From: an uncultured virus (IMG/VR IMGVR_UViG_3300001282_000003)
Taxonomy: Duplodnaviria; Heunggongvirae; Uroviricota; Caudoviricetes
Virus record (IMG/VR): IMGVR_UViG_3300001282_000003
Strand: one strand, 5' to 3'
DNA: 64,000 nucleotides
Below the pieces are notes generated by a model that was given only the letters and a program-made list of their open reading frames with translations, was not told where the DNA came from and did not search any database. Below are positions 3,897-47,583 of this stretch, piece by piece. Each line of letters begins with the position of its first letter. Positions within the stretch are counted from its first letter, which is position 1. The position numbers were made by a program, and so were the translations under genes.

Positions 3897-4574
3897 TTAT
3901 TTTATGTAATAATATAGTTTAAGTTTATCTCCCCAGGAGACATCAACGACAAATTCTTCTTTTAATATCTTACAAGATTTATTTTCGTGTGATGTAATAA
4001 AGTGACAGCCTTTTGACAGCCTATTAAATATATCAGACCTCATATCATAATCAAAACAAACATCATTCATAAAAACAATAGAACCCATTGATAAATCAAA
4101 ATCTTTTACATCTTTTTCAATGAAAAAAATTGATTTATGTTCTGGTAAAACTTCTTCTTTAATAGACTTAGCATATCTAAGTCTTTGTGGAACTATTTCA
4201 ATACCAACAAATGTTTTTATATCAGACTTAATAGCAGTATGTATAATTAATTTACCACAACCACAACCAATATCTACGAAAACATCTTTATCAGATACTT
4301 TTTTATATTTATTGATTTTATTTATGATTTCATCAACACCATTTCTAAGAATCTCACCATATGTAAAATTATTATTATAATTTCCTTTATATGTGAAGTG
4401 TTTATTGATATTTGTATCTCTTTTAGTAAAATTTTCTAATTTGAATTTGTCTTCAGATGAATAGTTATCCCAAACACCTAAAGACACACAAATAGATTTA
4501 ATACTAAATAAGTTATGCTTATAAAGTTGATCTAATTTAGAATTGTCTAATAATAATTTAAGTTCCTTGTCCAT
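3897..4574 (-). CDS. SAM-dependent methyltransferase, DOT1-like
   Basis: TYGEI, FVDIGCGCGK (motif I), GIEI, IVFMNDVCF resemble the DOT1 family; start set at MDKELK. Confidence 0.7.
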   Translation of the reverse strand: MDKELKLLLDNSKLDQLYKHNLFSIKSICVSLGVWDNYSSEDKFKLENFTKRDTNINKHFTYKGNYNNNFTYGEILRNGVDEIINKINKYKKVSDKDVFVDIGCGCGKLIIHTAIKSDIKTFVGIEIVPQRLRYAKSIKEEVLPEHKSIFFIEKDVKDFDLSMGSIVFMNDVCFDYDMRSDIFNRLSKGCHFITSHENKSCKILKEEFVVDVSWGDKLKLYYYIK

Positions 4575-4980
4575 ATTTAACAATCTCAATTTTAGCCTCT
4601 CTTAAAAAATCTAAGCCAGAGGTGTCTTTATAGTCTTCAATGTAGACTAATCGTTTTATTCCAGATTGTAGTATAAGTTTAGAACAATCTCTACAAGGAG
4701 AATGTGTTTGATATAAAGTACTACCCTCACAAGAATGACCATGTTTAGCACACTTTAGAATAGCATTAGCTTCACCGTGAATAACATACCAATTAGTATC
4801 ACCATCACCATTCTCACAAGAGTTATCAAAGCCTGTTGGTGTTCCATTATAACCATCAGATATAATCATTCCGTTCTTAACTATTAGGGCACCTACTTGT
4901 TTTCTACTACAATGTGAAAGTTTAGCCCACTCTGTAGCCATATTCAAATAAGTTCTATCGTATCTTTCTTCCTTAGTCAT
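4558..4980 (-). CDS. dCMP deaminase (ComEB-like)
   Basis: SHCSRKQVGALIV, GYNGTP, HGEANA and SPCRDC zinc motifs. Confidence 0.93.
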   Translation of the reverse strand: MTKEERYDRTYLNMATEWAKLSHCSRKQVGALIVKNGMIISDGYNGTPTGFDNSCENGDGDTNWYVIHGEANAILKCAKHGHSCEGSTLYQTHSPCRDCSKLILQSGIKRLVYIEDYKDTSGLDFLREAKIEIVKYGQGT

Positions 4981-5122
4981 TTTTAAATAGTTTATTTATT
5001 TTATATTTTCTAACCTCGTTTCTTTCCAGACCTAACATTTTAATTATCCAATCTATTGAAAAGTATGGAGTATTATATGATTTAATCATATCAGACATTA
5101 TTTTCATTCTATCCTTATTCAT
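4973..5122 (-). CDS. 49-aa mini-protein: portal (gp20)-like fragment plus C-terminal tag
   Basis: Not in ORF track; MNKDRMKIMSDMIKSYNTPYFSIDWIIKMLGLERNEVRKYKINKLFKND; 8-nt ATGANTAA overlaps at both ends. Confidence 0.7.
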   Translation of the reverse strand: MNKDRMKIMSDMIKSYNTPYFSIDWIIKMLGLERNEVRKYKINKLFKND

Positions 5123-5267
5123 TGAATAATTTATTAATTTTTTTCTTTCTTATAAGTTTTCTAACACTATCTTTATATACCTTATTAAAGGCTTCTTTTG
5201 GATATATTCTACCATTGTGTTTATCATAGGCTTTTTGTATAACACCTTCTAGAATATACTTACTCAT
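5115..5267 (-). CDS. 50-aa mini-protein: prohead protease (gp21) N-terminal-like fragment plus C-terminal tag
   Basis: MSKYILEGVIQKAYDKHNGRIYPKEAFNKVYKDSVRKLIRKKKINKLFNE; start at the ATGAGTAA overlap. Confidence 0.75.
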   Translation of the reverse strand: MSKYILEGVIQKAYDKHNGRIYPKEAFNKVYKDSVRKLIRKKKINKLFNE

Positions 5268-5433
5268 CTGGAAATAACTTTTTAATTTTTTCTTTTCTAC
5301 TACCTCTTTTAAAATCATTTATAACATCAGCAACAGCAGGTGAAACAACCATATAATTAGCACTACCTTTAGTAGATGCTTTATGAATCATTTCAGATGC
5401 CTTTAATAATTTATTAATTAGTTCTTTACTCAT
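5260..5433 (-). CDS. 57-aa mini-protein: major capsid protein (gp23)-like fragment plus C-terminal tag
   Basis: Not in ORF track; MSKELINKLLKASEMIHKASTKGSANYMVVSPAVADVINDFKRGSRKEKIKKLFPDE; ATGAGTAA overlap with upstream HNH gene. Confidence 0.72.
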   Translation of the reverse strand: MSKELINKLLKASEMIHKASTKGSANYMVVSPAVADVINDFKRGSRKEKIKKLFPDE

Positions 5434-6211
5434 GTGTTATTCTTATATTAGTTTTCACACTCCAATCTTTTGGTAAATGTTTACACTCATTATGTTCTAA
5501 GAAGTGTGATCTCCACATCTCTATAAAACTTTGTATATTATCTATCTTAGACATAACAACTTCACCGTGGGTCTTTTTAATAACCATTGTTTTTATTTTA
5601 GATATCTTCTCTAATCTTCTACAATCTAACCTTTTAATACCAAAGTAATCTTTAATCTTCTTTTTCATCAGATTAATTTTATCTTTAGGTATAGTAATAT
5701 CTGGATTAAGTAAAGCAATTGATATCTTCACATAAGTTATTAACTCTTTACTATCACTACATAATTCACCGTTCAAAGGTATTTGATACTCTTCGCCAAT
5801 TTTGTTTTTTAACTCATCTGCTTTTCTTTCATAAGAATCATGACAATCAGCACATAATGAAAGAACATCGTGGAAGTTATGAGATTTTAATTCCATCGGA
5901 AAGTATCTACGATAACAGTAAGGCACAACGTGGTGTCTAGTAAGATATTCTTCATTACCACAAGTAACACAGCGATTACCCATTTCAGATAAACCGAATG
6001 ATTTATTATGATTACCTAAACCTCTTGGTTCAAATTTCAATTTAACTATTAATGGTGATTCTGATACAATCTCACCTAAATTTCTATTAAGATACCACTT
6101 GGCTTTTTTCTCGTCACATCTAAACATCAAAATCCCACCCGGAGATAGGACTTGACAGTTTCCATAAATTTTTCGGTCTTTCTCTACACCATATGATGTA
6201 ACTCTACCCAT
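5426..6211 (-). CDS. HNH-like nuclease resembling the C-terminal HNH region of EXD2
   Basis: CVTCG...LTRHHVVP...HDVLSLCADCH; N-terminal IYGNCQVLSP...CDEKKAKWYL...LKFEP. Confidence 0.75.
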   Translation of the reverse strand: MGRVTSYGVEKDRKIYGNCQVLSPGGILMFRCDEKKAKWYLNRNLGEIVSESPLIVKLKFEPRGLGNHNKSFGLSEMGNRCVTCGNEEYLTRHHVVPYCYRRYFPMELKSHNFHDVLSLCADCHDSYERKADELKNKIGEEYQIPLNGELCSDSKELITYVKISIALLNPDITIPKDKINLMKKKIKDYFGIKRLDCRRLEKISKIKTMVIKKTHGEVVMSKIDNIQSFIEMWRSHFLEHNECKHLPKDWSVKTNIRITHE

Positions 6212-6214: not shown

Positions 6215-6772
6215 TTAAGCGATATGTTTGTCGATTTGTTGAATGTTTAATTCTACCAAAGTTTTTCTACCAAAGATTAAAACAGCAATCTTAACCTTAT
6301 CACCATCAATGTTTTCAACATCACCAGTGAATGAATTAAAAGGACCATCTAAGATTTTAACTTCTTCGCCTATGATGAATCTGTTTGTAGATTCCTGTTC
6401 AACAGCTACTTGTTCTTGTACACCAATCATTCTTTCTACTTCTTTAAGAGAAAGTACTTGAGGTTTTTTAGCTCTATCTGAAAGTAAACCAGTGGCACCA
6501 TCACAACCTTTAACAAAGTGTGCTAATTCTCCAATTGATATTGTTTCAACAAAAATATAACCAGGGTACATAACTTTTTCTCTGGTAACTTTCTTACCGT
6601 CTTTTAAGTGGAAGCTTTTTTCAGTAGGTACTAAAACTCTACTAATAGCACCCATCAAGTCACCTTTTTCAGATTCTTTTCTTAACTTTTCGGCTACAGA
6701 ACGCTCACGATTAGATTGTGCTCTAACGATGTACCACTTCATTGTTGTTTCTTTTTCCATTGTTGTATTCAT
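6215..6772 (-). CDS. nusG: transcription elongation/antitermination factor NusG
   Basis: KWYIVRAQSNRE, YPGYIFVE (NGN domain), GEEVKILDGPFNSFTG (KOW), IFGRKTLVEL. Confidence 0.93.
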   Translation of the reverse strand: MNTTMEKETTMKWYIVRAQSNRERSVAEKLRKESEKGDLMGAISRVLVPTEKSFHLKDGKKVTREKVMYPGYIFVETISIGELAHFVKGCDGATGLLSDRAKKPQVLSLKEVERMIGVQEQVAVEQESTNRFIIGEEVKILDGPFNSFTGDVENIDGDKVKIAVLIFGRKTLVELNIQQIDKHIA

Positions 6773-15651: not shown

Positions 15652-15822
15652 ATGAAGCATTTAAGACCAAGAAAAGAAGATCCATTTAAAGATTTTGCGC
15701 CAGTGATGACAAAAGATTGTCAAGGTGTCTGTGATCGTCAAGTTGTAATGACTAAGGAAGGACCAGTTATTGTTTGTAATGGTTGTATGAGAATTGTAAT
15801 GGATAATAGAGATAAAAAATGA
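15652..15822 (+). CDS. small zinc-ribbon-like protein (56 aa)
   Basis: Not in ORF track; MKHLRPRKED...CQGVC...CNGC; behind TATATTTG 15640-15647; ATGA overlap with rhomboid gene. Confidence 0.6.
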   Translation: MKHLRPRKEDPFKDFAPVMTKDCQGVCDRQVVMTKEGPVIVCNGCMRIVMDNRDKK

Positions 15823-16382
15823 TAAATTTAACACCAGTTGTAAAGCAGTTATTAAAGATTAATGTTATAGCTTTTATTATATCATATCTTTTATTTGAAA
15901 TGGGATTACCTTTTGTTAGTCAATTTCTATTATATCCAATTCAATCTGAAGAATTTCACATCTACCAGCTTGTGAGTTATATGTTTTTACATAGCTCACT
16001 CATGCATATTATATTCAATATGCTAGGTTTAATAACATTTGGACCAGATATAGAAGAAAGATTTGGTAGTAAAAAGTTTTTGAACTATTATTTAATAATG
16101 GGAATAGTATCTGGTTTATGTCATGCTTTATTTATAAGTAATCCAGTTTTAGGCGCATCAGGTGCTGTTTGGGGAGTTATGATGATATATGCTTTATCTA
16201 ATCCAAATACAATTCTACATCTTTACTTTTTAATTCCGGTTAAAGTTAAATATATTGTTGGTGTGTTTTTTACCATAGAGTTATACTTAGCACTTATAGG
16301 TGGTAGTGATGGTGTGAGTCATATTGCTCATGTTGGAGGTGCTTTAACTGGTCTTTTAATTTATTTGCTCAATAGAAAGTAG
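15819..16382 (+). CDS. rhomboid intramembrane serine protease
   Basis: YMFLH, HIIFNM, GASG catalytic Ser motif, AHVGG catalytic His. Confidence 0.93.
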   Translation: MINLTPVVKQLLKINVIAFIISYLLFEMGLPFVSQFLLYPIQSEEFHIYQLVSYMFLHSSLMHIIFNMLGLITFGPDIEERFGSKKFLNYYLIMGIVSGLCHALFISNPVLGASGAVWGVMMIYALSNPNTILHLYFLIPVKVKYIVGVFFTIELYLALIGGSDGVSHIAHVGGALTGLLIYLLNRK

Positions 16383-16545: not shown

Positions 16546-18756
16546 ATGAGAAAATTGCTAACTATGTTATTTTCTGTGATTAGTTTATTTGCTATTTCAC
16601 AGAACTGTCCTGAATTAGGACCAAATCAGATTTTACCTTGTGGTGTAAATACTGCTATATTGACTGCTAACCTAACCGCTTGTGGTGCTGGTACAAATCC
16701 AAATCAAACAACTAACTATTCTGTTGCTTCTATTCCTTATGTTGCTCAAACAAATACGGGAACTCAGTTATTTATGACTGATGATTCACAACAAGGACCT
16801 TTTAATATAGGTTTTAACTTTTGTTTCTTTGGTACAACATACACTCAATTTTATATAGGTTCAAATGGTTGGATATCTTTCTCACCCGCACAACCAACAA
16901 CATTTAGTTCTCAACTAATACCAACTATCAATCCTTTAGTTCCAAAGAACTGTATTATGGGTCCTTGGCAAGATTGGCATCCAGGTTTAGGAGGTCAAAT
17001 TAGATATCAAACGTCTGGTGTTGCTCCTTGTAGAAAACTAACAGTTAGTTGGATTGGGGTTCCAATGTTCTCTTGTACAGGTAATCAAGGAACATTTCAT
17101 ATAGTTATTTATGAATCTAGTAATAATATTGAAAATCATATTCAAAATAAACCGGCTTGTTTAGGTTGGCAAGGTGGTACTGCTGTTGAAGGTATACATA
17201 ACTTAGCGGGTACAATAGGAATTCCAGTACCTGGTAGAAATTCAACTGCTTGGGTTGCTAATAATGATGCTTGGAAATGGACACCTAGTGGACCAGTAGT
17301 TACACCTGTATTAACTTGGTATCAAGTTGGTAATCCAGTTGCTATTGGAACAGGTCCTACTATAACTGTAAATCCATTAGTACCAACACAATATACTTGT
17401 CATTTTGTTTACCCTATTTGTAATGCGGGTTGGACTTCTTGTAATGCTGGTATTGCTGGACCTGGACCAGATACTGTTTTAGTTGTGCCAGGTCCACCTA
17501 ACATTCTTCTTAATACTTCATTTACCGAACCACTTTGTTTTAATGATTGTAATGGGACAGCAACTGTTACTCCAATAACAGGAACACCACTATATAATTA
17601 TTTATGGTCAAATGGTCAAACAACTCAAACTGCTACTAGTTTATGTGCTGGTGTTTATAGTGTAAATGTAACTGATATAAACGGATGTTCAGCAAATACC
17701 ACTGTTAATATAACTCAACCAACACAATTGATTTTTGATAGTTTAGTTTTATCTGATGTTACTTGCTCATTAAATGATGGACAAATTTTTATTTATCCAA
17801 ATGGTGGAACACCAACATATGATTATTTTATAGATGGTTTAATATCAAATGACACAATTACTAATCTCGCTGGTGGTAACTATACAGTTTCTGTAACAGA
17901 TAATAATGGTTGTACTATAGACTCAATCGTTTTTATTGATTTTCCTACACCTATAAATATTTCAGTATCACCAGTTGATACAATTCTTTGTGTTCCAGGT
18001 ACATTCAATTTTATAAATAACTCTACACCTGCTGTTAATATTGTTAGTTCAATAATAGATTATGGTGATGGATTTACTGATAATATATTATCAAATTCTA
18101 ACTTTACACATACTTATAGTACAGTTGGTATTTGGGATGTTATAGTAACAACGGTTAATGATTATGGATGTACATACACACAAACATTTAACAATATAGT
18201 AGAAACCGTTTCATTGCCAGTTTCTCAGTTTATGGTTGGACCAAACCCAACAACAATGTTTGAGACAACTGTTTCTACATTTGATTATTCAGGTCCTAAT
18301 ATTGTGGCTTGGAATTGGTCAGCACCAGGATCTTTAGAACTAACTAGTGGTCTTTCTAATCCAAATTTCACATACCCTGAAGGAATTATAGGTCAGTATT
18401 TAATTACTCTAACAGTTCAAAATAGCTTAGGTTGTAGTGATTCATCTTCTGTTGTTTTAATTGTTAATCCAGATGTATTAACTTATATACCTAATGCTTT
18501 CACTCCGGGTGGTGATGAATTCAATTCAACTTGGAAATTCTACTTATCAGGTGTTGATGAGCAAGATTTCACTATGTCTATATTCAATAGATGGGGTCAA
18601 ATGATATGGGAATGTCATGATATAAATGGTGAGTGGGATGGATCTTATAATGGGTATTATGTTCCAGATGGTTGTTATTTTTGGAAATCTCAGTTTACGG
18701 TTTTAAACTCTTCAGAGAAAAGAACTGTTATGGGTTATGTAACTATTATCAGATAA
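16546..18756 (+). CDS. secreted adhesin-like protein with SprB-like/PKD repeats and T9SS type B (gliding motility-associated) C-terminal domain
   Basis: Signal peptide; YLWSNGQTT...YSVNVTDINGC repeats; C-terminal IPNAFTP...IFNRWG...WDGSYNG...PDGCY. Confidence 0.88.
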   Translation: MRKLLTMLFSVISLFAISQNCPELGPNQILPCGVNTAILTANLTACGAGTNPNQTTNYSVASIPYVAQTNTGTQLFMTDDSQQGPFNIGFNFCFFGTTYTQFYIGSNGWISFSPAQPTTFSSQLIPTINPLVPKNCIMGPWQDWHPGLGGQIRYQTSGVAPCRKLTVSWIGVPMFSCTGNQGTFHIVIYESSNNIENHIQNKPACLGWQGGTAVEGIHNLAGTIGIPVPGRNSTAWVANNDAWKWTPSGPVVTPVLTWYQVGNPVAIGTGPTITVNPLVPTQYTCHFVYPICNAGWTSCNAGIAGPGPDTVLVVPGPPNILLNTSFTEPLCFNDCNGTATVTPITGTPLYNYLWSNGQTTQTATSLCAGVYSVNVTDINGCSANTTVNITQPTQLIFDSLVLSDVTCSLNDGQIFIYPNGGTPTYDYFIDGLISNDTITNLAGGNYTVSVTDNNGCTIDSIVFIDFPTPINISVSPVDTILCVPGTFNFINNSTPAVNIVSSIIDYGDGFTDNILSNSNFTHTYSTVGIWDVIVTTVNDYGCTYTQTFNNIVETVSLPVSQFMVGPNPTTMFETTVSTFDYSGPNIVAWNWSAPGSLELTSGLSNPNFTYPEGIIGQYLITLTVQNSLGCSDSSSVVLIVNPDVLTYIPNAFTPGGDEFNSTWKFYLSGVDEQDFTMSIFNRWGQMIWECHDINGEWDGSYNGYYVPDGCYFWKSQFTVLNSSEKRTVMGYVTIIR

Positions 18757-32421: not shown

Positions 32422-33987
32422 ATGGTATTAAAGAATATACACGAAAAACTATTATCAGGTATCCAGACGATGTTGATTGATACTAAGATTAACCTACCTT
32501 ACTACGGTGAGTTTAACTTACATATTAACTTCATAGAGCAAGACTCTGTTGGTACTTGTGGTGTCAACGTATCGTCTAAGGGTATGAACTTTTTCTACTC
32601 TCCAAAGTTCTTGGAAGATATGTCACAAAAAGAAGTGAATTTCATTACTCTTCACGAGGATTTCCACTTATTGTTTAATCACCCAAAACGTACAGTTACT
32701 GGTCAATACGACCATAAGATGTCTAACATCGCCCAAGATATGATTATCAATCACGTTATCTGGGAAGATATTCCACACGCTTTCGTTGAAATTCCTAAGA
32801 ACAAAGATGGTAAGAATATGGCTTTATTCGTTCCGAAAGAGTACACTGGTAAACTTATCTTTGAAGAGTTGTACGAGTGGTTGAAAGACGAGAAAGAAAA
32901 ATGGCAGAAAGAGCAAAAGAAAAACTCTGAATGTAAATCTTGTGGTGGTTCTGGTAAGAAAGACCAAGGTCAAGGTCAACAAGACCAAAAACAAAAAGGT
33001 CAAGGTCAACAACCAGGTGATGGTCAAGGCGAAGGCGAGAAACAAGAAGGTCAAGGCAAAGGTCAACAACCAGGCGAAGGTCAAGGTCAAGGTGAAAGCC
33101 AAGACAAACAAGACGGTCAAGGAAAAGGCGAAGGTCAAGGTCAACAAGGTGGTGGTTCTGGTGAAGGTGAAAGTTGTCCAGACTGTCAAGGTACTGGTAA
33201 CGAAGGTGGTAAAGACTCAAGTGGTAAACCATCTTACGGACCTTACGGAAAGAACCCATCTAAAGATGGTGAGTCTTTAGATACTTGGTCTAAAGAGCAA
33301 ATCTTCCAAGATATGGAAAATGGTAACGGAGAATACATGGACAAACACATGGGAGACGATGTTCCAGAAGAAATGCGTGAAGCAATGGTTAAAGACGTTA
33401 TGGAGCGTTTAGCGGCTCGTGGTTTATCTGCGGGTAATGTTGAGACTACTCTTAACAAACTTCGTAAGAAACGTAAAGATTATCTTCGTGAAATCAAACG
33501 TGCTGTATCAAATATGATTTTCGGTACTGTAAAACAAAAAACGATTGTTAAACCTAACCGTAGACAAATCGCTGGTTTGAAAGGTAACCGTAAAGTTAAA
33601 AACAAAATCAATTGTATCTTAGATACATCTGGTTCAATGGGTGGTACTTTTGAAAGAGTTCTTTCTTACATCTACCGTAATGATATTGAAATCAACTTGA
33701 TTGAGGCTGATACTGAAGTTAAGTGGATTGAGAACATCAAGAACAAACGCAAGTTGGAAACAATGGTGATTAAAGGTCTTGGTGGTACTATCTTACAACC
33801 TGCTATCGACTTGGTAGCTGACCAGTTCAATGAGTTCAACACTGTTGTCTTAACAGACGGATATTGTGACTCTCTTGACTTGTCAAAAATCAAAGGCAAA
33901 GTATTAATGGTTTCAATTGGAGTGAAAGTTCCAATCTCAAGAAGTAATGGTAAGGTAAAACAAATTATGGTTGAGAAAGAAAGCTAA
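32422..33987 (+). CDS. VWA-domain protein with putative metallopeptidase domain (DUF2201-like)
   Basis: HEDFH (HExxH), NIAQDMIIN, DTSGSM MIDAS, GGT, LTDG; Gly/Gln linker bracketed by CKSCGGSG and CPDCQGTG. Confidence 0.88.
   Translation: MVLKNIHEKLLSGIQTMLIDTKINLPYYGEFNLHINFIEQDSVGTCGVNVSSKGMNFFYSPKFLEDMSQKEVNFITLHEDFHLLFNHPKRTVTGQYDHKMSNIAQDMIINHVIWEDIPHAFVEIPKNKDGKNMALFVPKEYTGKLIFEELYEWLKDEKEKWQKEQKKNSECKSCGGSGKKDQGQGQQDQKQKGQGQQPGDGQGEGEKQEGQGKGQQPGEGQGQGESQDKQDGQGKGEGQGQQGGGSGEGESCPDCQGTGNEGGKDSSGKPSYGPYGKNPSKDGESLDTWSKEQIFQDMENGNGEYMDKHMGDDVPEEMREAMVKDVMERLAARGLSAGNVETTLNKLRKKRKDYLREIKRAVSNMIFGTVKQKTIVKPNRRQIAGLKGNRKVKNKINCILDTSGSMGGTFERVLSYIYRNDIEINLIEADTEVKWIENIKNKRKLETMVIKGLGGTILQPAIDLVADQFNEFNTVVLTDGYCDSLDLSKIKGKVLMVSIGVKVPISRSNGKVKQIMVEKES
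32963..33170 (+). repeat. low-complexity GGTCAA/GGCGAA coding repeat (GQGQ linker)
   Basis: tandem imperfect CAAGGT units within the VWA gene. Confidence 0.7.
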
Positions 33988-34013
33988 AAAAGAGTCCCGA
34001 AAGGGACTTTTTT
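33986..34013 (+). terminator. intrinsic terminator
   Basis: AGTCCC-GAAA-GGGACT followed by T run. Confidence 0.85.
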
Positions 34014-34042
34014 ATTTTAAAAACTTTCCGTATATTTGTCAA

Positions 34043-34309
34043 ATGACTGAATGTGATATTTGGATAAAAGTATTTGATAAATTGGGATTTAAGTTTATAG
34101 AAGAATATTCCTCTCAAAGTAAGATAAACTTTTTAGTTTATCGCAATGATGATGGTGACTATAACTTATACTTTAATAGAGAAACCGATGAAGTTTTATC
34201 TTTATTTATCAGAAATAGTAAAACTGAAAATCAAACTACTAAACAGTTATTTATAGAAGAAAATAAAAATCTATTCAGGGATGTAAAACTTGAATTAATG
34301 AATATATAA
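34043..34309 (+). CDS. hypothetical protein with C-terminal tag
   Basis: start reassigned to ATG behind TATATTTG 34031-34038; ends FRDVKLELMNI. Confidence 0.65.
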   Translation: MTECDIWIKVFDKLGFKFIEEYSSQSKINFLVYRNDDGDYNLYFNRETDEVLSLFIRNSKTENQTTKQLFIEENKNLFRDVKLELMNI

Positions 34310-34313
34310 TAAG

Positions 34314-34877
34314 ATGAAAGTAATATTTTTAGATAATGATGGTGTTGTTTGCTTGTCTACCGAATGGGGTGGACGAGGCAAAAAGAAATCTAAGTACTTG
34401 AAAGAATTTCCAGGTACTGAAGATACTATGCCTGCTTGGGTAAAAATGGATAACTTCAATGATAAAGCTGTTAAGATTCTTAATTCAATCTTATTAGAAA
34501 CTGATGCTGAAATTGTTGTTAGTTCTGATTGGAAGTTATATTGTACTTTAGATGAACTAAAAGAAATGTTTACTAAGTATGGTGTTATCAAACAACCAAT
34601 TGATACTACTCCTAGTATTCCTTTGAAGTATGATAAAAACTATTACACTGCTGGAGAATTAGCTGACTATAGAATAAGTGAAGTTAATAAGTGGTTAAAA
34701 GAACATCCAGAAGTAACTCACTGGGTTGCTGTTGATGATTTGCCTTTAGGTGAATTATATGGTCCAATCTCTGGTAACTTTCTTGGTGGTTTGAAGAACT
34801 TTGTCTTAACACCAAAGAGTTCCGAAGGTATTAAACAAAGTGGCATTAAAGAAAAAATATTAAAATTCTTACTGTGA
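34314..34877 (+). CDS. HAD-superfamily phosphatase (Swiss-army-knife RNA-repair type)
   Basis: IFLDNDGV, IVVSSDW, WVAVDD motifs. Confidence 0.82.
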   Translation: MKVIFLDNDGVVCLSTEWGGRGKKKSKYLKEFPGTEDTMPAWVKMDNFNDKAVKILNSILLETDAEIVVSSDWKLYCTLDELKEMFTKYGVIKQPIDTTPSIPLKYDKNYYTAGELADYRISEVNKWLKEHPEVTHWVAVDDLPLGELYGPISGNFLGGLKNFVLTPKSSEGIKQSGIKEKILKFLL

Positions 34878-35341
34878 TATACAGATTAGATTTCGGCAAT
34901 CTTTATGAGTGGAATAATTGTAATTCTGCTAACTCTAAGTTACTTGAAATGGTTCATAACTTAGTGCTAGATTCTTTATTACTATATCGTTACAAGGTTA
35001 AGAAATCTATTGTTAATAGGTATGGTGTTAGTGATCCTGAAAAGATTAACTTTGATTTGATTAAACATAAATCAATTATTGTTTATCATTTAGATATCTA
35101 CAAAGAAAAGCCTACTTTAATAAATGATTTAATTAAATTCTGCTTAAAAACAGATAGAGATTTGTTTATACCTACCCAAAGAGAAAGATACTGGGGTAAA
35201 GATGATGTTTATAGAAAAAAACACGAGTATAGATTTGATATAGCACTTGAGTTAGACACTTATGATTATCAATACTATGATATGAATAAAGATAGCTCTT
35301 TAGTACAATTAAAAAGAGAGCTAATAATTAGCTCTCTTTAA
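34874..35341 (+). CDS. hypothetical protein with C-terminal tag variant
   Basis: GTG start overlapping previous stop; ends LKRELIISSL. Confidence 0.6.
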   Translation: MIYRLDFGNLYEWNNCNSANSKLLEMVHNLVLDSLLLYRYKVKKSIVNRYGVSDPEKINFDLIKHKSIIVYHLDIYKEKPTLINDLIKFCLKTDRDLFIPTQRERYWGKDDVYRKKHEYRFDIALELDTYDYQYYDMNKDSSLVQLKRELIISSL

Positions 35342-36758: not shown

Positions 36759-37013
36759 TTAAAATTCTATTTTTTCAACGTCATTTAAATCGACATTGTA
36801 TTGTTTTCCATCAATCTCAACGGTGATTAAGCCATCTTGATCAATATCAATCGGAGTTATACCTTCTTCAGGTTTATTTTCAGGGAAATCATGAACAATA
36901 GTTGAATAAATAAGACCTCTATTTTTTATACACTTGATAATATCATCTTGTGTTATAAGAGTTCCTTCCTCATTATTCTTCTTAAAATCCTCAAAAAGTT
37001 TCATCCATTTCAT
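36759..37013 (-). CDS. small protein with N-terminal capsid-targeting-like motif
   Basis: starts MKWMKLFEDF behind AATATATA (37019-37026). Confidence 0.65.
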   Translation of the reverse strand: MKWMKLFEDFKKNNEEGTLITQDDIIKCIKNRGLIYSTIVHDFPENKPEEGITPIDIDQDGLITVEIDGKQYNVDLNDVEKIEF

Positions 37014-37059
37014 GAATTTATATATTAAAAATAATATATACATAAAATTACTTTATAAA

Positions 37060-38364
37060 ATGGCAGTAAGATGGAAAGGTGGGTGGTCCGGCTCCGGTTC
37101 ACCTGAAACTAGTTTAATCACATATTATAACGGTGATTCTGTTTTATATGAAAACATAACATACACCGTCCAAACAAATGTATTGAGTGTACCTATTGGT
37201 TCACCTCCCCCACCAAGTGACATGGCTAATTGGGATGTTCTTGTTGCTGGTGGATCTGATGGTACTTCTGGATCTTCCGGTACAAGTGGATTATCAGGAT
37301 CAAGTGGAACTTCAGGTTCTTCCGGATCAAGTGGCTCTGCTGGTACAAGTGGTTCATCTGGGTCTTCTGGTGCTTCAGGGTCAAGTGGTACTTCTGGATC
37401 TTCAGGTATTTCAGGTTTTAAAGATAACGATTGGTTATCCTTAATCCCCACTAGCGGAAGCATAGCTACTACGGGTAATGTGTTTGTTTTAAGTGGGACT
37501 ACGACCTCGTATGGTGAGGTCTCCTATAACAATTCCACAGGAATAATTACCCTAGCATCCAATAAGACTTATAATATAAGAGCATCATTATCACTTGCTA
37601 ATGATGTGCTCAATGCCGAAGTTCAATATCAATGGATAAATGTAACATCAGGTAATACTACGATAGGAAATTCAGGAGGAGTTTTAGTAGTTTCCAGCAC
37701 AGCAACAGCAGCTTGGCAACCTGTCGCAGAAGCTATCATTACAACATCTGCTTCAACTCAAATTGCTTTAAAATCAAACTTTAGTAATTCATCCGGAAGT
37801 TTAAACTTTTACATGTGTTACTTTTTAGTCCAAGAGATATACGGATATTCAGGATCGAGTGGATCATCTGGTACTTCTGGATCATCTGGTACATCAGCAC
37901 CTGGTATAACATCTGGATCTTCTGGTACTTCAGGATCTTCTGGTTCATCAGGTAGTTCTGGAACAAGTGGTTCTTCGGGTACATCAGGATTGAGTGGTAA
38001 TGTACCAGTCACGGGAAGTTGGACTTTATCTACAGGTGCCAATACTGTTAGTTTTACAGTTCCCAGTGCGAATTCATATGTTATGTGGGTGAACGGAAAT
38101 ATTCCAAATGGTATTGTTAATTGGAATGCCACGGTAACATTATCAAACTCAAATGTGCCAGTAATAGGTTCGCAATATGGTTGGTACTATTCAGCAGGAA
38201 ATGCTTTAGTTTTAACATCAATACCAAGTCAAATAGTTGGAACTCTAGGAAGTATTAGTACCTCAATGCCAGCAGTTTCAAATTCAAATACATTTACATT
38301 TGGTATAACAAATAACAGTGTTACATCACAAACAGTTTATTACGGATATATTAAAGTAAGTTAG
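37060..38364 (+). CDS. collagen-like (Gly-Ser/Thr-Ser repeat) structural or fibre protein
   Basis: start MAVRWKGGW behind AATATATA 37033-37040; two blocks of GTSGSS triplets separating beta-rich domains. Confidence 0.7.
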   Translation: MAVRWKGGWSGSGSPETSLITYYNGDSVLYENITYTVQTNVLSVPIGSPPPPSDMANWDVLVAGGSDGTSGSSGTSGLSGSSGTSGSSGSSGSAGTSGSSGSSGASGSSGTSGSSGISGFKDNDWLSLIPTSGSIATTGNVFVLSGTTTSYGEVSYNNSTGIITLASNKTYNIRASLSLANDVLNAEVQYQWINVTSGNTTIGNSGGVLVVSSTATAAWQPVAEAIITTSASTQIALKSNFSNSSGSLNFYMCYFLVQEIYGYSGSSGSSGTSGSSGTSAPGITSGSSGTSGSSGSSGSSGTSGSSGTSGLSGNVPVTGSWTLSTGANTVSFTVPSANSYVMWVNGNIPNGIVNWNATVTLSNSNVPVIGSQYGWYYSAGNALVLTSIPSQIVGTLGSISTSMPAVSNSNTFTFGITNNSVTSQTVYYGYIKVS

Positions 38365-38382: not shown

Positions 38383-39147
38383 ATGAAATACTTAAAAAGA
38401 TTTAACGAAGAACTTAGACCAAGAACATATCTATCTGCTGCTAAAAAATTAACAGCTATTGGACATACTGATAGAGCTAACACCCTAAAAGATTGGGCTA
38501 ATGAAACTGAAAAAAGAGAAGAAATTGCTAAATGGAAAGAACAACTTCAAAATTATTCACCATTTGGTATTTATAAAGTGAATGTTGTTAATCCAGAAAG
38601 TGGTGAAAAATTCACTGCTGATTTTGCGTTAGATTTAAGTTTTGATGAATTAGCATTTGAAGATAACTTTGAATATGAAAAACAAAAAGATCCAAACAAT
38701 ATTAGTGAAGTAAGTATTTTCTTTTTTGTTGGTTTAATTCCTACATCAGAAGAAGTTCTTAAAAAATGTGAAGAAGTAATGCCTGAACCTGAATTTGGTA
38801 ACGGTATGTACTGGGGCATGTCTTGTGGTATAGATTTCAAAGTCGAAAATGGACAAGTTATACTTGATAAATTTGCCTTAGATGATTATGACGATAACTT
38901 ATCTGGTAATGTTTCTTTTGCTGATAGAGCTTCTGCTGGTAAATTCAAAAACTTATTAAAAAGTATTTTTAGTAACCCTGACTTAAATTATCCAAGTGGA
39001 TATACTGATGCTGATAGTATCTATCAGAAATTAGAACAAGTTATTTTAATTCAACAAGGATTCTCATCTGATTATGGATTTGAATTAAAAAATATTGCCG
39101 ACTTTATTAACACTCAATCACCAAATACAATGTATAAAACTATTTAA
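38383..39147 (+). CDS. paralog family member 1, N-terminal capsid-targeting-like motif
   Basis: MKYLKRFNEE-LRPRTYLSAAKKL..IGH; ADRASAGKFK; AATATATA 38371-38378. Confidence 0.75.
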   Translation: MKYLKRFNEELRPRTYLSAAKKLTAIGHTDRANTLKDWANETEKREEIAKWKEQLQNYSPFGIYKVNVVNPESGEKFTADFALDLSFDELAFEDNFEYEKQKDPNNISEVSIFFFVGLIPTSEEVLKKCEEVMPEPEFGNGMYWGMSCGIDFKVENGQVILDKFALDDYDDNLSGNVSFADRASAGKFKNLLKSIFSNPDLNYPSGYTDADSIYQKLEQVILIQQGFSSDYGFELKNIADFINTQSPNTMYKTI

Positions 39148-39148
39148 T

Positions 39149-39976
39149 ATGAAACATCTAAAAAGTATTAATGAATTAAAATCTAGTACATATGCTTCTG
39201 CTGCTAATAAGTTGAAGAATATGGGTCATATTAGAAGATCTGGTGAATTAGAACAATGGACTAAAGAAGTCCAAAATAAAGAAAAAGATGCTAGAGAATT
39301 AGAAAATTTTAATTCATTCAAACACGGTGTTCCTTTCAAAATTAACTTAGTTAAAGTTAAATATAATAGTGCTACTAAAAGTAGAGATCATGACATAATG
39401 GTTACAGGTAACTTTTATCTAAAGCCTTCTTTTGATTTTTCATGGGCTCAAGATCAATACAATGATAATGCTGATGAGAATGGAAATACTGAATACTCTT
39501 ACTATATGCCTTTTGAAGTAGGTATAATGGCAGCAGATGAAGAAACAAAAGAGAAATTCAGATCAATTGAAGAAAATCTTTCTGATGAAGTATATGAAGG
39601 AGTTTATTGGTTACAAAGACTTTATTATAAAATAATTAATGAAGGTTCTAAAGAAATAACTCCAACTGGTGAATTTTCTTGGGAATGTAGAGAAAGTGAT
39701 GAAATAATGTTTGAAAATAGAGCCGAGGCTTTAAGATTCAAAAAGATGTTTGTTGATGCGGTTCACGGTAGAAATACTTTTGGTAATTCAAAATGGGTAC
39801 CAAGTATGCATGAAGAATTAAAGAAATTCTTTTTAGGTGATTGGTTACAGAGATATAATCGTGATACAAAATCATATGATAAAGTAGACAGACAAGAAGT
39901 ATTTAACGAAGAAGCTTTCAAAAGATTCTTAGATTCAACTAATAAAATGTCAATAAATCAATTATATAGAAACTAA
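39149..39976 (+). CDS. paralog family member 2, N-terminal capsid-targeting-like motif
   Basis: MKHLKSINE-LKSSTYASAANKL..MGH; ENRAEALRFK; ends MSINQLYRN. Confidence 0.75.
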   Translation: MKHLKSINELKSSTYASAANKLKNMGHIRRSGELEQWTKEVQNKEKDARELENFNSFKHGVPFKINLVKVKYNSATKSRDHDIMVTGNFYLKPSFDFSWAQDQYNDNADENGNTEYSYYMPFEVGIMAADEETKEKFRSIEENLSDEVYEGVYWLQRLYYKIINEGSKEITPTGEFSWECRESDEIMFENRAEALRFKKMFVDAVHGRNTFGNSKWVPSMHEELKKFFLGDWLQRYNRDTKSYDKVDRQEVFNEEAFKRFLDSTNKMSINQLYRN

Positions 39977-40743
39977 TGAAGTATCTAAAGAAATATAATG
40001 AAGAGTTAAAGGCTGATACTTATAAATCAGCGGCTGATAAATTGGCTAAGATGGGTCATGTTAAAAGACCAGAAGAGTTAATGAAGTTTCATGTTGTGGC
40101 TAAAGAAAGAGAAAAAGAAGAAGCTAAAAGAAAAGCCATTGAAGAAGCATCTGAATTAGGTACTTATAAAATGACCTTAAAAGGTCGTGGTGATATTAAA
40201 TTCACTGGTGATTTCTATGTTTATTTTTACTGGAATAATGATAATTTTGATGAAAGCTATGGAGATTGGAAATCATTTGATAGCAGTTCTCTTTGGTTAC
40301 AATTTGACTTTTCTGTTTTACCAGCATCTGAAGAATCTAAAGAATTTACTCAAAATGTTCTTAATAAAGAAATAGGTCTTAATTATGACGGTAAATGTTA
40401 TTTAGGTTCATTTGGTCTTAATCTAACACAAGGTGGTGCCTCTTATGATGAAAATGATAAACCAACATATGTTCTAAAACCTAATGGTGGATTCTATTTT
40501 GAGGAGTATGATAGTATAGCATGGTATATGGCTGATAGAGGATCTGCTCAGAAATTTAAGAAGATGCTTTATGATGTATTTGAGGGTAATATTGTTTGGA
40601 GAGAAACTCCACAATTACCTGGTGGTGTGAAAGAACAAATCTTAGACTTCCTTTGTTCAGATATGGATCATACCTTAGAAGAGTTTGAAGAATTTATAGA
40701 ATCTCTAAAACGAATAAGTGTAAATAAACTTTATAAAGACTAG
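39976..40743 (+). CDS. paralog family member 3, N-terminal capsid-targeting-like motif
   Basis: MKYLKKYNEE-LKADTYKSAADKL..MGH; ADRGSAQKFK; ends ISVNKLYKD. Confidence 0.75.
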   Translation: MKYLKKYNEELKADTYKSAADKLAKMGHVKRPEELMKFHVVAKEREKEEAKRKAIEEASELGTYKMTLKGRGDIKFTGDFYVYFYWNNDNFDESYGDWKSFDSSSLWLQFDFSVLPASEESKEFTQNVLNKEIGLNYDGKCYLGSFGLNLTQGGASYDENDKPTYVLKPNGGFYFEEYDSIAWYMADRGSAQKFKKMLYDVFEGNIVWRETPQLPGGVKEQILDFLCSDMDHTLEEFEEFIESLKRISVNKLYKD

Positions 40744-41161: not shown

Positions 41162-42331
41162 ATGAAATTAAAAAGATATAATCAATTTTTAGAATCTAAA
41201 TCTGATATGTGGGATATCATTCCACAATCAGTGAAAGAGTTACACGAACTATTTCAATCAGCAGGTAAGAAACTTTACTTAGTTGGTGGTTCAGTGCGTG
41301 ACTTCTTAACTGGTGATAAACCAAAAGATTTTGACTTAGCAACCGATGCTCTTCCAGATGAAGTTTTGGAAATTGTCGGAGATAAATTTAGAACTAACCT
41401 TCAAGGTAAAGCCTTCGGAGTTGTTGTAGTTTACACTAAAGAAGTTCCAGAAGGAATGGAAATTGCTACATTCAGAGAAGATGTTTCAAAAGGTCGTAAC
41501 CCAGAAGTTAAATTGGGTGTTACTATTGAAGATGATGTTAAGCGTAGAGACTTAACTTACAACTCTCTTTTCTATGATTTAGATACAAGACAAATCGTTG
41601 ACTTAGTTGGTGGTAAAGAAGATTTACAATCTGGTATTACGAGAATGGTTGGTGATCCTATTGAAAGATTTGATGAAGATTCATTAAGAATTTTAAGAGC
41701 ATTTAGATTTGCTTCAAGATATGAACATCCTTTACATAAAGATACTGAAAGTGCTATTGAGAAAAGAAAACAACTTCAAAACATTGATCCAGAGACTGGT
41801 GAAATGAAAAGAATTTCTCAAGAAAGAGTTTGGGAAGAAATGAAGAAAGCTTGGAAACAAGCCAAAGATTACAGATACTACTTATCATTCTTTACTAAGT
41901 TTGATATGTGGGATGAAGTATTTCCTGTTGCTAACATCAATACTAATTTAGTTGATTCAAAAGACTTTATAGTTGTTGTTGCTAACTTATTTAAGAACGA
42001 ATCCACTTTAGGTTTGACTGATAGACTAGCTCAAGAATATAAGATTGAATTAGAAACAGCTACTAAAGTAACTTTCTTACTTTCGTTATTAAATTTCAAA
42101 GTAGAAGATGTATTTGATATTTACAAGAAAAGACAACAATGTGCTATCACTGATGCTACTATTTTAGAGTGGTTAAAAGTCGAAGGTATTGATACTGATA
42201 CTTTAGTTAAGTTTGTTGAATACAAACCAAGTGTATCTGCTCAAGAACTTATGTCTCAAGGATTCAAGGGTAAAGATCTTGGTGATGAAATCAAAAGATT
42301 AGAGATAGAAAAATTTAAACAAATGCTATGA
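41162..42331 (+). CDS. cca: CCA-adding tRNA nucleotidyltransferase (class II)
   Basis: VGGSVRD, DFDLAT, EIATFR, RRDLTYN, EDSLRILRAFRFA, ISQER motifs; N-terminus MKLKRYNQFLES. Confidence 0.92.
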   Translation: MKLKRYNQFLESKSDMWDIIPQSVKELHELFQSAGKKLYLVGGSVRDFLTGDKPKDFDLATDALPDEVLEIVGDKFRTNLQGKAFGVVVVYTKEVPEGMEIATFREDVSKGRNPEVKLGVTIEDDVKRRDLTYNSLFYDLDTRQIVDLVGGKEDLQSGITRMVGDPIERFDEDSLRILRAFRFASRYEHPLHKDTESAIEKRKQLQNIDPETGEMKRISQERVWEEMKKAWKQAKDYRYYLSFFTKFDMWDEVFPVANINTNLVDSKDFIVVVANLFKNESTLGLTDRLAQEYKIELETATKVTFLLSLLNFKVEDVFDIYKKRQQCAITDATILEWLKVEGIDTDTLVKFVEYKPSVSAQELMSQGFKGKDLGDEIKRLEIEKFKQML

Positions 42332-42792
42332 CACATAAATTAACTTATTTAAAAGATGCGGTTGGGAATAATTATGTTGGAATTAATATTCCAAATGAAG
42401 TTGTCGAACCACATTTAGAAAAACTAAAAGAAATTTTAGGTGAAGAAGATTTTGAAATCTTTACACAAAATCAAAAGACGAGAGATCACGGACACTATCA
42501 CATTACTGTTATTAATGTAATGGATTGTAACCGACTTTCTAAAGAAATGGGAATGGCTAACTTTGTTAAATCAGTTGAATTAGCATTTGATTATACTGTA
42601 GAAGATTTAGAACTATTAGGTGTTGGCATGGCTTCTAAGAATGCCAATACCGCTTACTTTATAGTTTGCTCATCTGATAGTTTAGATGCCGTTAGAACTC
42701 GTTTTAACTTACCTAAACAAGACTTTCATGTTACACTTGGTTTCAATACTAAAGATGTGTTTGGTGTTCCAAAAAATTTGGTAATAAATTAA
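42328..42792 (+). CDS. 2H phosphoesterase (RNA repair type)
   Basis: two HxT motifs, YHITV and FHVTLG; coupled to cca. Confidence 0.82.
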   Translation: MTHKLTYLKDAVGNNYVGINIPNEVVEPHLEKLKEILGEEDFEIFTQNQKTRDHGHYHITVINVMDCNRLSKEMGMANFVKSVELAFDYTVEDLELLGVGMASKNANTAYFIVCSSDSLDAVRTRFNLPKQDFHVTLGFNTKDVFGVPKNLVIN

Positions 42793-45999: not shown

Positions 46000-47583
46000 T
46001 TATTTTCTAACTATAATCTTTTTTGTTGTATTATCAACTTGTAAGAAATAGATACCATTCGTAAGTGTACTAACATCTAAACTAAGATTTCCTGATACTG
46101 TTTGAGTATTAATTACTCTACCCATACCATCGATTAAAGTTACTTGTACTAATCTATCAGTTGTGATGTTTACATTGTTTGTAGCAGGGTTAGGGTAGAT
46201 AGATACGTTTGTAGTTTTAGTAATCTCATTTACACTAACAAATCCACCAACAAATTTAGAGTTTGTGAAATCAGCTCCTGTTGCTACTAATGAAGTAGAA
46301 TCTAATCTACAGTCAGGTGTAGTTCCTAATGTTGGAAAAGCATTGACCCAATTGATTTGAGATACTGAAGTTGTTGTATCATTTACTGAAGCAACTGTTG
46401 TAAAGAAAGTTGGTGTGGCAGTTACATAACTAGCACCTAAAGGTAGTTCAGTTAAAACATTGTTTGAGAAAACTAATGTTCCAGATGTTACGTTATTCTC
46501 ACAAGAAGGACCTTCGATTGATAATCCTTTTTCCCAACCAACTACTAAAGAGTTGAATACTGAGATAGAAGAGTTTCTTCTAATTCTAAAAGCTTTTTCA
46601 AATTTTTCACCAACTGGTAAAGATAAAGAACCATTTCCTTTAGCTCCAATAATTGTTAAGTTTGAGAATATTGCTGCTGTTTGTGGTGTGTTAGCTGAAC
46701 CAGCCGCATCGTTATCTGATTCTAAACCGTTTGAGTCACCAGCCGCATCATACATAGTATTATCACGAATGATTAAACCAAATTGAATTCTACCTCTGTA
46801 ACCAAAATCAGTATCGAAGTCATCATCAATTCCTCTGTAAGCGATTAGATGTTTACAATCAACTGTGCCACCAAACCATTCGTAAGAGTCATCACCTGAG
46901 AAAGAAACTTGTATAAAGTCTACTTGAGTTCCTCTACCAACTGAACCAAAAGTAATACCGTTGATTTCTTTGTTTGGTTCTAAAGCGATACCAGCAAATT
47001 CAATTCTTACATATTTTAATGAACCTGAGTTATCATTGTCATCTGATCCACCATATTGTGTATTAGCAGTTGGTACAATACCTTCAATGTTAGCAACACC
47101 ACCTGGTTGATTATTTGTAGCTTGACCTAAGATAACTAAACCACCCCAGTCACCTTCAGCTCTATTACCAACTGATTCATTTGAAGTGAAAACGATTGGT
47201 AAGTTTTGTGTACCTTCAGCTATTATTTTACAACCTTTAGTAACGATTAAAGTTGCTTGTGTTGCTTTGTCACCTCTGATAATTGTACCAGGTAAGATAG
47301 TTAATGTAGCTCCGTTAGTTACATAGATTTTATTTTGTAATAAAACATTACCACCGATTGTTGTGTTTGTTGTAATGTCTGAGTTAAGTGTAGAAGTAGT
47401 TGAAGGATAGTTAGTGTTTTCTGGGTCGAAATTTGACCATCCATATGTCCAGTTTGTACCTGGTGTTCCATCAGTTACAGGGAATGCTCCTTTGTAAGAT
47501 GTTGCTGTCCAAAATGTAGACTGTGCGTTTAGACTAAGATTAAGACCAAGTCCGATTAAAATAAGAGTAAATAATTTTCTCAT
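46000..47583 (-). CDS. secreted beta-helix-like protein with T9SS type A C-terminal sorting domain
   Basis: signal peptide; GDWGGLVILG, DNSGSLKYVRIEFAG, DDSYEWFGG; C-terminal IYPNPA...GIYFL...KKIIVRK. Confidence 0.88.
   Translation of the reverse strand: MRKLFTLILIGLGLNLSLNAQSTFWTATSYKGAFPVTDGTPGTNWTYGWSNFDPENTNYPSTTSTLNSDITTNTTIGGNVLLQNKIYVTNGATLTILPGTIIRGDKATQATLIVTKGCKIIAEGTQNLPIVFTSNESVGNRAEGDWGGLVILGQATNNQPGGVANIEGIVPTANTQYGGSDDNDNSGSLKYVRIEFAGIALEPNKEINGITFGSVGRGTQVDFIQVSFSGDDSYEWFGGTVDCKHLIAYRGIDDDFDTDFGYRGRIQFGLIIRDNTMYDAAGDSNGLESDNDAAGSANTPQTAAIFSNLTIIGAKGNGSLSLPVGEKFEKAFRIRRNSSISVFNSLVVGWEKGLSIEGPSCENNVTSGTLVFSNNVLTELPLGASYVTATPTFFTTVASVNDTTTSVSQINWVNAFPTLGTTPDCRLDSTSLVATGADFTNSKFVGGFVSVNEITKTTNVSIYPNPATNNVNITTDRLVQVTLIDGMGRVINTQTVSGNLSLDVSTLTNGIYFLQVDNTTKKIIVRK

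Follow-up and report, generated by a model that had tools for sequence, protein, structure and literature searches.

Candidate virion-protein excerpts with a common tag: a family of mini-genes in huge T4-type phages

Why would a phage carry a row of very short genes, each resembling a small piece of a conserved virion protein and each ending in nearly the same nine residues? We address this question for a locus in the 64,000-nucleotide record of an uncultured virus, IMGVR_UViG_3300001282_000003, which we refer to throughout as the window. Three mini-genes on its minus strand, here called A, B and C, are squeezed between an HNH endonuclease gene and a dCMP deaminase gene. We find that all three are conserved small open reading frames (ORFs), that their bodies resemble single segments of the T4-type capsid protein, prohead protease and portal, and that they belong to a family of such tagged excerpts spread across a clade of huge T4-type phages that carry Bacteroidota-like genes. 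What these genes do is less certain, and we tentatively favor a role as native-fragment competitors acting on virion assembly, a reading to which we give somewhat less than an even chance.

The HNH gene, A, B, C and the deaminase gene form a minus-strand chain of five genes joined by 8-nucleotide start/stop overlaps (ATGANTAA). The HNH gene (5426-6211; 261 residues; HNH matches in Pfam and PHROG with expectation values E of 2e-4 to 7e-3) overlaps A (5260-5433; 57 residues) by ATGAGTAA at positions 5426-5433, and A overlaps B (5115-5267; 50 residues from an ATG at 5267) by ATGAGTAA at 5260-5267. The overlap between B and C (4973-5122; 49 residues) is ATGAATAA, at 5115-5122, and the overlap between C and the dCMP deaminase gene is ATGACTAA, at 4973-4980. 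The deaminase gene (4558-4980; 140 residues; phrog_174 at E 3.5e-55, PF00383 at E 6.6e-24) closes the chain, and a NusG-like gene (6215-6772, minus strand; 185 residues; PF02357 at E 6.2e-17) serves as the upstream anchor of the locus. The mechanical ORF for B is one of 67 residues, beginning at an upstream ATG at 5318; an MSK-type start is found in 35 of 40 aligned B sequences, the window copy among them. An Rfam scan of the window returned three tRNAs only, with no intron or other RNA family at the locus.

The three products end in RKEKIKKLF-PDE (A), RKKKINKLF-NE (B) and RKYKINKLF-KND (C), and the nine-residue portion, which we call the tag, is coded at 5272-5298, 5124-5150 and 4985-5011, respectively. 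ORF and tag scans thus confirm what the initial annotation of this DNA had described, namely three chained minus-strand ORFs with 8-nucleotide overlaps and a common R-K-x-K-I-x-K-L-F end. Scanning the window in six frames for the tag core K[IVL]x[RK]L[FY] recovers A, B and C along with two matches in frames of 21 and 26 residues, which look like chance. At the DNA level the tag-coding stretches are direct repeats, 71-76% identical, with the A and B copies 148 nucleotides apart. The Arg and Leu codons of the A and B tags are AGA and TTA; the Leu codon of C is CTA.

Before asking what the mini-genes resemble, we wish to know whether they are genes at all. Small-ORF families corresponding to A, B and C come from many independent contigs and sources, and comprise 52 protein clusters for A (54-75 residues, 61-100% identical), 41 for B and 28 for C. 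The best-conserved positions in each family are the core of the excerpt and the tag; within the latter, R, K, I and F are invariant in the alignment of A, and R, K and I in those of B and C. The ratio of nonsynonymous to synonymous substitution rates (dN/dS) falls below 1 in all 23 mini-gene pairs that give a value, among 24 compared: it ranges over 0.15-0.84 for A (14 of 15 pairs, one being saturated), 0.22-0.61 for B (6 pairs) and 0.49-0.63 for C (3 pairs), values that are rough because each mini-gene offers only 22-36 synonymous sites. The corresponding ranges are 0.02-0.12 for the dCMP deaminase and 0.16-0.35 for the NusG-like gene (10 pairs each). Frames, lengths, starts and overlaps are conserved, and the A-B-C order and the coupling persist in relatives that are only about 50% identical. 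We conclude that A, B and C are conserved small ORFs under moderate constraint, and we infer that they are translated.

These observations bear directly on a more mundane explanation, in which the mini-genes are leftovers of gene splitting, of homing-endonuclease activity or of illegitimate recombination that happen to be open by chance. Mobile endonucleases tend to cut in the most conserved motifs of their targets; the excerpts do cover the most conserved motifs of their parents, the HNH gene abuts A, and in two relatives an A-like stretch lacks an ATG-started ORF. Decayed pseudogenes or endonuclease debris, however, would hardly keep their frames and overlaps over 28-52 clusters with dN/dS below 1, and A, B and C each occur without the HNH gene, in a window that has no intron. 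The initial annotation had likewise held that these are not decayed pseudogenes. Conservation largely refutes the debris explanation, which we consider very unlikely.

To which proteins, then, are the bodies of A, B and C related? Five relatives served as stand-ins for the phage: a 40.6-kb IMG/VR fragment (G001) that is 97-98% identical here, two near-complete IMG/VR genomes of 385 kb (G002) and 476 kb (G003), and the public genomes LR745206.1 (634,780 bp) and LR756502.1 (642,428 bp), which are the nearest public relatives. According to the available text of PMC9723777, the two public genomes belong to a cluster of megaphages larger than 630 kb, LR745206.1 being an uncultured phage from a Japanese subsurface sample and LR756502.1 coming from a French freshwater lake. 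Genome-level comparisons with head proteins used the capsid, protease and portal proteins of these relatives.

The case is strongest for A. Residues 3-40 of the window copy match positions 222-259 of Pfam Gp23 (PF07068) at E 2.5e-4 and 21 bits, which is under the family's 24.4-bit cut-off, and 30 of 35 aligned relatives match the same positions at E<=0.01, the best at 1.2e-6. (This alignment holds 35 of the 52 clusters, the other 17 having been left out as close to rows already kept.) The A profile, aligned by hhalign with the 560-residue capsid protein of a relative, falls on residues 411-463 (P 0.0025). The similarity to a gp23 segment that had been proposed for A is thus borne out by profile search, and the evidence that its body is a capsid-protein excerpt is strong.

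For B, the proposed parent is the T4-type prohead protease, whose N-terminus resembles residues 3-29. The window copy has no Pfam match; 15 of 40 aligned members of its family match Peptidase_S77, the best at 1.2e-3. When B was compared by tblastn with 50,697 phage records, all nine hits lay in prohead core, scaffold or protease genes (the T4-type prohead protease), with 54-58% identity over residues 3-29 and E of 1-3 each. The hits span two unrelated phage groups, those of Sinorhizobium and Xanthomonas, and fall at the same N-terminal place. Against a relative's protease-scaffold fusion, the B profile is aligned by hhalign with residues 25-54 (P 0.025). We regard B as probably an N-terminal excerpt of the prohead protease, with moderate support.

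For C, six weak tests converge on a single segment of the portal, which immediately precedes the end of the Pfam domain (Portal_T4 positions of about 385-431, facing residues of about 8-40 in C). C matches the portal family phrog_213 at E 0.089; one of 25 members of its family matches Portal_T4, at E 0.009; its profile is placed by hhalign at residues 468-489 of a relative's 577-residue portal (P 0.0013); a relative's C-type gene matches Portal_T4 at E 0.048 and 0.0087; blastp of C against the same 577-residue portal gives E 0.002 in a database of three proteins; and a profile of the C body ranks a portal first among 1081 proteins from two genomes, at E 0.036. Here too the body is probably an excerpt, from the C-terminal part of the portal, and the support is moderate.

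Since the bodies are so short, it is important to ask how a genuine piece of the parent would score. A genuine 51-residue capsid segment of a relative, covering Gp23 positions 222-259, scores 14.7 bits, compared with 21 bits for A; a genuine portal C-terminal segment scores 18.6 bits, compared with 15.3 bits for a relative's C; and a genuine N-terminal segment of the protease has no match, just as the window's and a relative's B have no protease match. Taken together, genuine segments of equal length score no better than the mini-genes, so that the excerpts score like real pieces.

This does not make them members of the parent families. A falls short of PF07068 as a whole domain (376 positions, more than 24.4 bits), and is thus a fragment homologue and not a capsid protein; B covers no more than roughly the first 30 residues of the protease, where PF03420 is a domain of about 198 positions with catalytic residues; and C-type genes match PF07230 (433 positions, more than 22.9 bits) only at about 385-431, with 12.8-15.3 bits. 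The excerpts cover about 10% of each parent (Gp23, S77 and Gp20), and contain neither fold nor catalytic residues. Their bodies appear to be homologous to single segments of these families, and they do fit the microProtein-type definition, in which a small protein shares homology with a single segment of a larger one.

A, B and C are not isolated examples. The related phages of 385-635 kb carry 11-18 candidate tagged mini-genes per genome, with bodies that match the capsid protein (four segments), the protease, the scaffold, the portal and probably the tail sheath. A Gp23 search covered five related genomes, of which one (G004) is a fragment without a capsid gene. Each of the four large genomes has the true capsid gene, and three have a paralogue of 252-265 residues; the search also returned one weak match in a 159-residue frame that a stop interrupts, and a set of 12 small ORFs (57-93 residues). 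All 12 are tagged, one of them with a degenerate tag. They fall into four classes, at Pfam positions of about 126-185, 155-198, 220-260 (the class of A) and 300-376. One Gp23-type mini-gene scores 34.9 bits, over the Pfam cut-off, and matches 1643 T4-like phage records at up to 43% identity, T4 gene 23 at 37%; against the capsid protein of its own genome it has no phmmer match at E<=1. Several tagged classes are present in every related genome checked, and one of them lies in conserved synteny.

In LR745206.1, a regular-expression scan gave 23 frames, 18 of which were taken as candidates. Their bodies match this genome's own capsid protein (E 2.9e-5 and 0.027), its protease (weakly), its portal, and a family that includes a tail-fiber assembly protein (E 3e-5 to unnamed PHROGs); the mini-gene at 460435-460686 matches the scaffold repeats of the genome's own protease-scaffold fusion at E 1.3e-37; and about ten candidate bodies match nothing. 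In this fusion the prohead protease is attached to an extended scaffold that contains many copies of N-x-S-Y-S-E-Y-[LI]-A-E-N-L-D-K as well as a strongly acidic stretch; the fusion is found at 198546-200669 in LR745206.1 and at 32744-34882 in G002. The latter genome has 11 candidates, including a protease piece (E 0.002) and a body that matches residues 4-24 of a 1314-residue protein (E 0.018). The C-terminal part of this large protein resembles the T4 gp18 sheath (E 8e-11), and the piece is probably the N-terminus of a gp18-type sheath. Virion proteins are the source of every tagged body that can be assigned. In IMG/VR, a search by pattern turned up 57 loci, of which 16, on contigs of up to 476 kb, fall by eye into the mini-gene classes; among the remainder, 11 are one unrelated low-complexity frame and 15 have no in-frame tag.

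Two candidate parents outside the virion were also considered. The idea that one relative's mini-gene copies motif B of DNA polymerase found no support, and another mini-gene has a weak match to a Clp-type ATPase (E 0.065). The family B DNA polymerase of LR745206.1 itself appears split into pieces at 130568-131992 (minus strand) and 232803-234344 (plus strand), about 100 kb apart, and its C-terminal piece ends in ...MDIFGGFK, a hydrophobic tail that resembles the pattern of the tag.

What, then, is the tag? Its consensus, R-K-x-K-I-x-K-[IL]-F, is basic and hydrophobic. In two sets of called genes, 12 of 961 and 6 of 469 (1-2%) have the strict form within their final 18 residues and none within the first 18. 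Every strict case (12 of 12 and 6 of 6) is at the C-terminus, and all strict carriers have at most 100 residues. A six-frame count in a related 635-kb genome gives 15 strict tags, compared with 0-2 in 10 mononucleotide shuffles. A looser, purely hydrophobic pattern is no commoner at C-termini than at N-termini. An AlphaFold2 (AF2) model of A, built from its alignment (mean predicted local distance difference test score, pLDDT, 74; predicted template-modeling score 0.32), has helices at residues 3-22 and 32-53 and a loop at 23-31; the loop is the conserved N-Y-M-V-V-S stretch, and the second helix runs through the tag. With hydrophobic residues at i, i+3 and i+4 among lysines and arginines, the tag is predicted to form a short basic amphipathic helix.

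The tag is not confined to C-termini, nor perhaps to mini-genes. In the class at Gp23 positions 300-376, which copies the last strands of the capsid protein, it is usually internal, at a point where about 20 residues are inserted in comparison with the capsid protein (for example G002 127442-127714, loci L064 and L139, and eight more IMG/VR loci). The window also holds three tandem paralogues (38383-40743, plus strand; 254-275 residues) with a common MK[YH]LK...NEEL N-terminus, and two of them (39149-40743, plus strand; 275 and 255 residues) end in [KN][KR]x S [IV] N [KQ] L Y. These larger proteins may carry the same tag. The paralogues have no Pfam family, and an AF2 model of the 255-residue one (pLDDT 69.5) has no fold match in the Protein Data Bank (PDB) at E<=0.001, nor did Atlas give a lead. 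Tag-like ends are found on two larger LR745206.1 proteins as well; the paralogous carriers span 196-309 residues. In the protease-scaffold fusion, a stretch resembling the tag comes after the protease domain. The start of A's tag aligns with the capsid protein's own continuation, K-S-K-I-N ... L-Y-P. The tag may have begun as capsid sequence, which we offer as a lead and not as a result.

Such a distribution raises the possibility that the tag is the working part of these proteins, an address to the prohead core or scaffold, the membrane, DNA or a sliding clamp, and that the bodies are mainly raw material; as a variant, the products could be small packaged proteins of the prohead core. The tag is the most conserved part of the mini-genes; it is internal to the protein in one class; and related ends or stretches occur on the 196-309-residue paralogues, after the protease domain in the fusion with its very acidic scaffold part and, as a similar hydrophobic pattern, at the end of a relative's polymerase. 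The tag may resemble clamp-binding peptides and MinD-type membrane helices. If the bodies were incidental, on the other hand, one would not expect every assignable body to come from a virion protein, nor the excerpted segments to be conserved within each class. No gp45-type clamp gene was found by PF09116 or PF02916 in three genomes, or among 113 LR745206.1 proteins of 195-260 residues compared with PHROGs at E<=1e-6. Nor does the tag resemble the C-terminus of the scaffold, and inspection of its sequence shows no cleavage site like that of the T4 protease, [LI]-x-E. We judge a tag-centered function, including its packaged-protein variant, to be rather unlikely.

The tag-coding repeat also figures in how the locus varies between relatives. 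The NusG-like gene lies upstream in all ten related loci examined, and the gene content downstream varies: the array reads HNH-A-B-C in the window and in G002, HNH-A-C in G001, HNH-A-B in one record and HNH-A in three, two of which have no deaminase gene; in G004 an A-like frame without ATG is followed by B, with no HNH gene, and LR745206.1 has C alone, also with no HNH gene. A further relative, G005, has an A-like stretch, 41% identical, without an ATG-started ORF. The mini-gene contents are thus ABC, AC, AB, A, B and C, and the order is never altered. In G001, B is missing from the window's arrangement as a clean difference of 148 nucleotides, equal to the spacing of the tag repeats, with both ends inside the tag, and the A gene of G001 accordingly finishes with the terminal part of B's tag. 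Where the tag frame continues into the start of the deaminase gene, alternative endings such as ...DEAREI result. We conclude that recombination through the tag-coding repeat adds, removes and reshuffles cassettes. A database protein, P0114, in which the first residues of B are joined to a complete C, looks like a recombinant between cassettes. The HNH gene separates the NusG-like gene from the mini-genes in six related loci, and at this place it is missing from LR745206.1 and two IMG/VR relatives; it is an independent optional insertion.

We now return to function. Native fragments of a protein can inhibit their parent by titrating its interfaces or folding contacts, a principle reported, in the available text of two papers, as experimentally established for bacterial proteins (PMC9245647, PMC10769210). 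On the native-fragment reading that we tentatively prefer, each product would consist of two parts: an excerpt of 30-45 residues from a conserved core segment of a virion protein, and the common nine-residue tag, predicted to be helical. The excerpt would reproduce a contact or folding interaction of its parent, and would bind the parent's partners during virion assembly, whether those of the phage itself or those of a co-infecting T4-type rival, while the tag would supply a common address or handle. As to the possible target, several classes are conserved across the clade, which suggests the assembly of the phage itself; that A, B and C evolve fast and are not always present suggests rivals or host sensors.

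Several observations weigh against this reading, and we gather them here. In the same genome pairs in which A is 55% and C 34% identical, the parents are 73-77% (capsid), 81-82% (portal) and 81% (protease-scaffold) identical, so the bodies evolve two to four times faster than the parent proteins, which one would not expect of the partners of proteins that change slowly. In two full genomes, roughly half of the tagged bodies have no match of any kind. Identity between the excerpts and full-length proteins from related genomes reaches only about 25-35%, and the B family matches EF-hand_7 in 20 of 40 members, the best at 6.2e-5. Against PDB sequences, the A profile finds T4 gp23 at E 1.2, below dopamine-receptor noise, the B profile finds the T4 prohead protease third, at E 0.52, and the C profile has no portal match. 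In tblastn searches of the phage collection, A has no capsid match among those listed (150 of 156 lie in mycobacteriophage primase genes) and C returns nothing. Finally, the body profiles rank the capsid only second to third (E 0.09-0.1) and the protease about fourth (E 0.27) among the 1081 proteins, which is a weak ranking.

One could read these figures to mean that the bodies are simply unrelated small proteins, and that their similarity to head proteins is noise; the scores of B and C are indeed individually weak, and B's matches to EF-hand_7 outnumber those to the protease family. This we consider most improbable. A and other Gp23-type mini-genes are significant taken alone, all nine of B's database matches belong to a single gene family and, across two unrelated phage groups, occupy the same N-terminal place, and the weak matches of C agree, over six tests, on the same portal segment. 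Of the resemblances proposed in the initial annotation, that of B to the gp21 N-terminus therefore stands for its family and its tblastn hits and not for a Pfam match of the window copy, while that of C to the gp20 C-terminal segment stands on concordant weak tests, with PDB and tblastn searches failing to add to them.

A different use of the same excerpts, and the main one put forward in the initial annotation, would be as immune decoys, which mimic the parts of capsid, protease and portal that are recognized by bacterial sensors, and which, made early, would occupy or neutralize those sensors. Bacterial receptors are reported, in the available text of PMC13581612, to detect the core phage proteome. 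The genes around the array form a leftward run concerned with DNA metabolism (topoisomerase II, 5'-3' exonuclease, NusG-like, dCMP deaminase), which by analogy with T4 suggests early expression. Even close relatives differ in which of A, B and C they have, and these genes change rapidly, as would befit an arms race. One excerpt, moreover, is closer to canonical T4-type capsid proteins than to the capsid of its own genome, as described above for the 34.9-bit mini-gene. Yet no sensor is known for the presumed Bacteroidota host; a peptide that bears the epitope would be expected to trigger a sensor rather than to silence it, unless it acts as an antagonist; bodies also derive from the scaffold repeats and probably from the sheath N-terminus; and, unlike typical anti-defense genes, classes are conserved in every related genome checked, one in fixed synteny. 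An arms race would explain this conservation no better than a function within the phage's own biology. We doubt that the mini-genes are decoys.

The recombining cassettes also invite a broader and more speculative proposal, namely a modular kit for protein interference. In such a kit, 11-18 targeting genes with excerpts of capsid, protease, scaffold, portal and sheath would share one tag that brings a common effector or location, for example the phage's own Clp-type protease, a membrane or the scaffold, and specificities would be swapped by recombination at the tag repeat. It could be used against rival T4-type phages, against host sensors, or to time the phage's own assembly, and would be a natural counterpart of designed fragment inhibitors or of targeted-degradation tags. 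We think it improbable that the full kit exists as described.

How do the mini-genes compare with known systems? The closest likeness is to dominant-negative native fragments (PMC9245647, PMC10769210), which, as the available text describes them, are short excerpts of a larger protein that titrate the parent's partners; the 30-45 residues of the excerpts are within their range, and a similar action is what we propose here. Those fragments come from experimental libraries; the mini-genes are natural phage genes with several virion parents, one common tag and recombining cassettes. MicroProteins, which we take to be an analogue of excerpts of the A, B and C type, differ in the same respects, being eukaryotic regulators. 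The capsid-targeting sequence of T4 is a short N-terminal peptide on internal proteins that the prohead protease removes at [LI]-x-E. It is similar in that one short peptide on unrelated T4-type phage proteins could be a common address; it differs in that the tag is C-terminal or internal, strongly basic, and without an N-terminal signal ending in [LI]-x-E. CpmB of the staphylococcal pathogenicity islands (SaPI) is a satellite protein that mimics the C-terminal helix of the scaffold and redirects capsid assembly of the helper phage. It too is a small protein with a copy of a segment of a morphogenetic protein, but it is one satellite protein with one parent, whereas here the phage itself has many excerpts, and the tag does not match the C-terminus of the phage's own scaffold. 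Anti-defense decoys and sponges of phages, in the available descriptions, are likewise small, variable between relatives and related to proteins that host sensors are reported to detect; for the mini-genes, a sensor or ligand would be hypothetical.

The window as a whole has 30% G+C. Phage-type replication and nucleotide-metabolism genes lie alongside Bacteroidota-style envelope genes, namely those for a CHU_C/SprB/PKD protein (16546-18756, plus), a TonB-dependent receptor with a carboxypeptidase-regulatory domain (43180-45993, minus) and a protein with a type IX secretion sorting tail (46000-47583, minus); these envelope-type genes point to a Bacteroidota host. Genes for tRNA Leu(TAA), Arg(TCT) and Met(CAT) lie at 48580-49180 on the plus strand. 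RNA-repair-like genes, all on the plus strand, encode a Swiss-Army-Knife HAD domain (34314-34877), a head domain of the poly(A) polymerase/CCA-adding type (41162-42331) and a 2H phosphoesterase (42328-42792), and a 430-residue protein (57456-58748, minus) has an AAA_33 or Zeta-toxin-like kinase domain (E 1e-8). A DOT1-like methyltransferase gene (3897-4574, minus) lies directly downstream of the dCMP deaminase gene, and genes for a rhomboid protease (15819-16382) and a collagen-like G-S-S repeat protein (37012-38364) are on the plus strand.

Full-text literature searches, which did not cover supplements, found no published description of tagged fragment genes in phages. The class of tagged virion-excerpt mini-genes is present in many large uncultured phage genomes, where automated annotation misses it or leaves it unnamed, and the combination of tag and excerpt makes it a clean and searchable class of genes even without a known function. 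The excerpts also mark segments of 30-45 residues in the T4-type capsid, protease, portal and sheath that are worth testing as assembly inhibitors. If A, B and C do act as competitors in virion assembly, they would be the first natural case of a virus that encodes a tagged set of fragments of conserved virion proteins, and they would provide a handle on the control of giant capsids, or else on conflict between phages and the evasion of structural-protein sensing.

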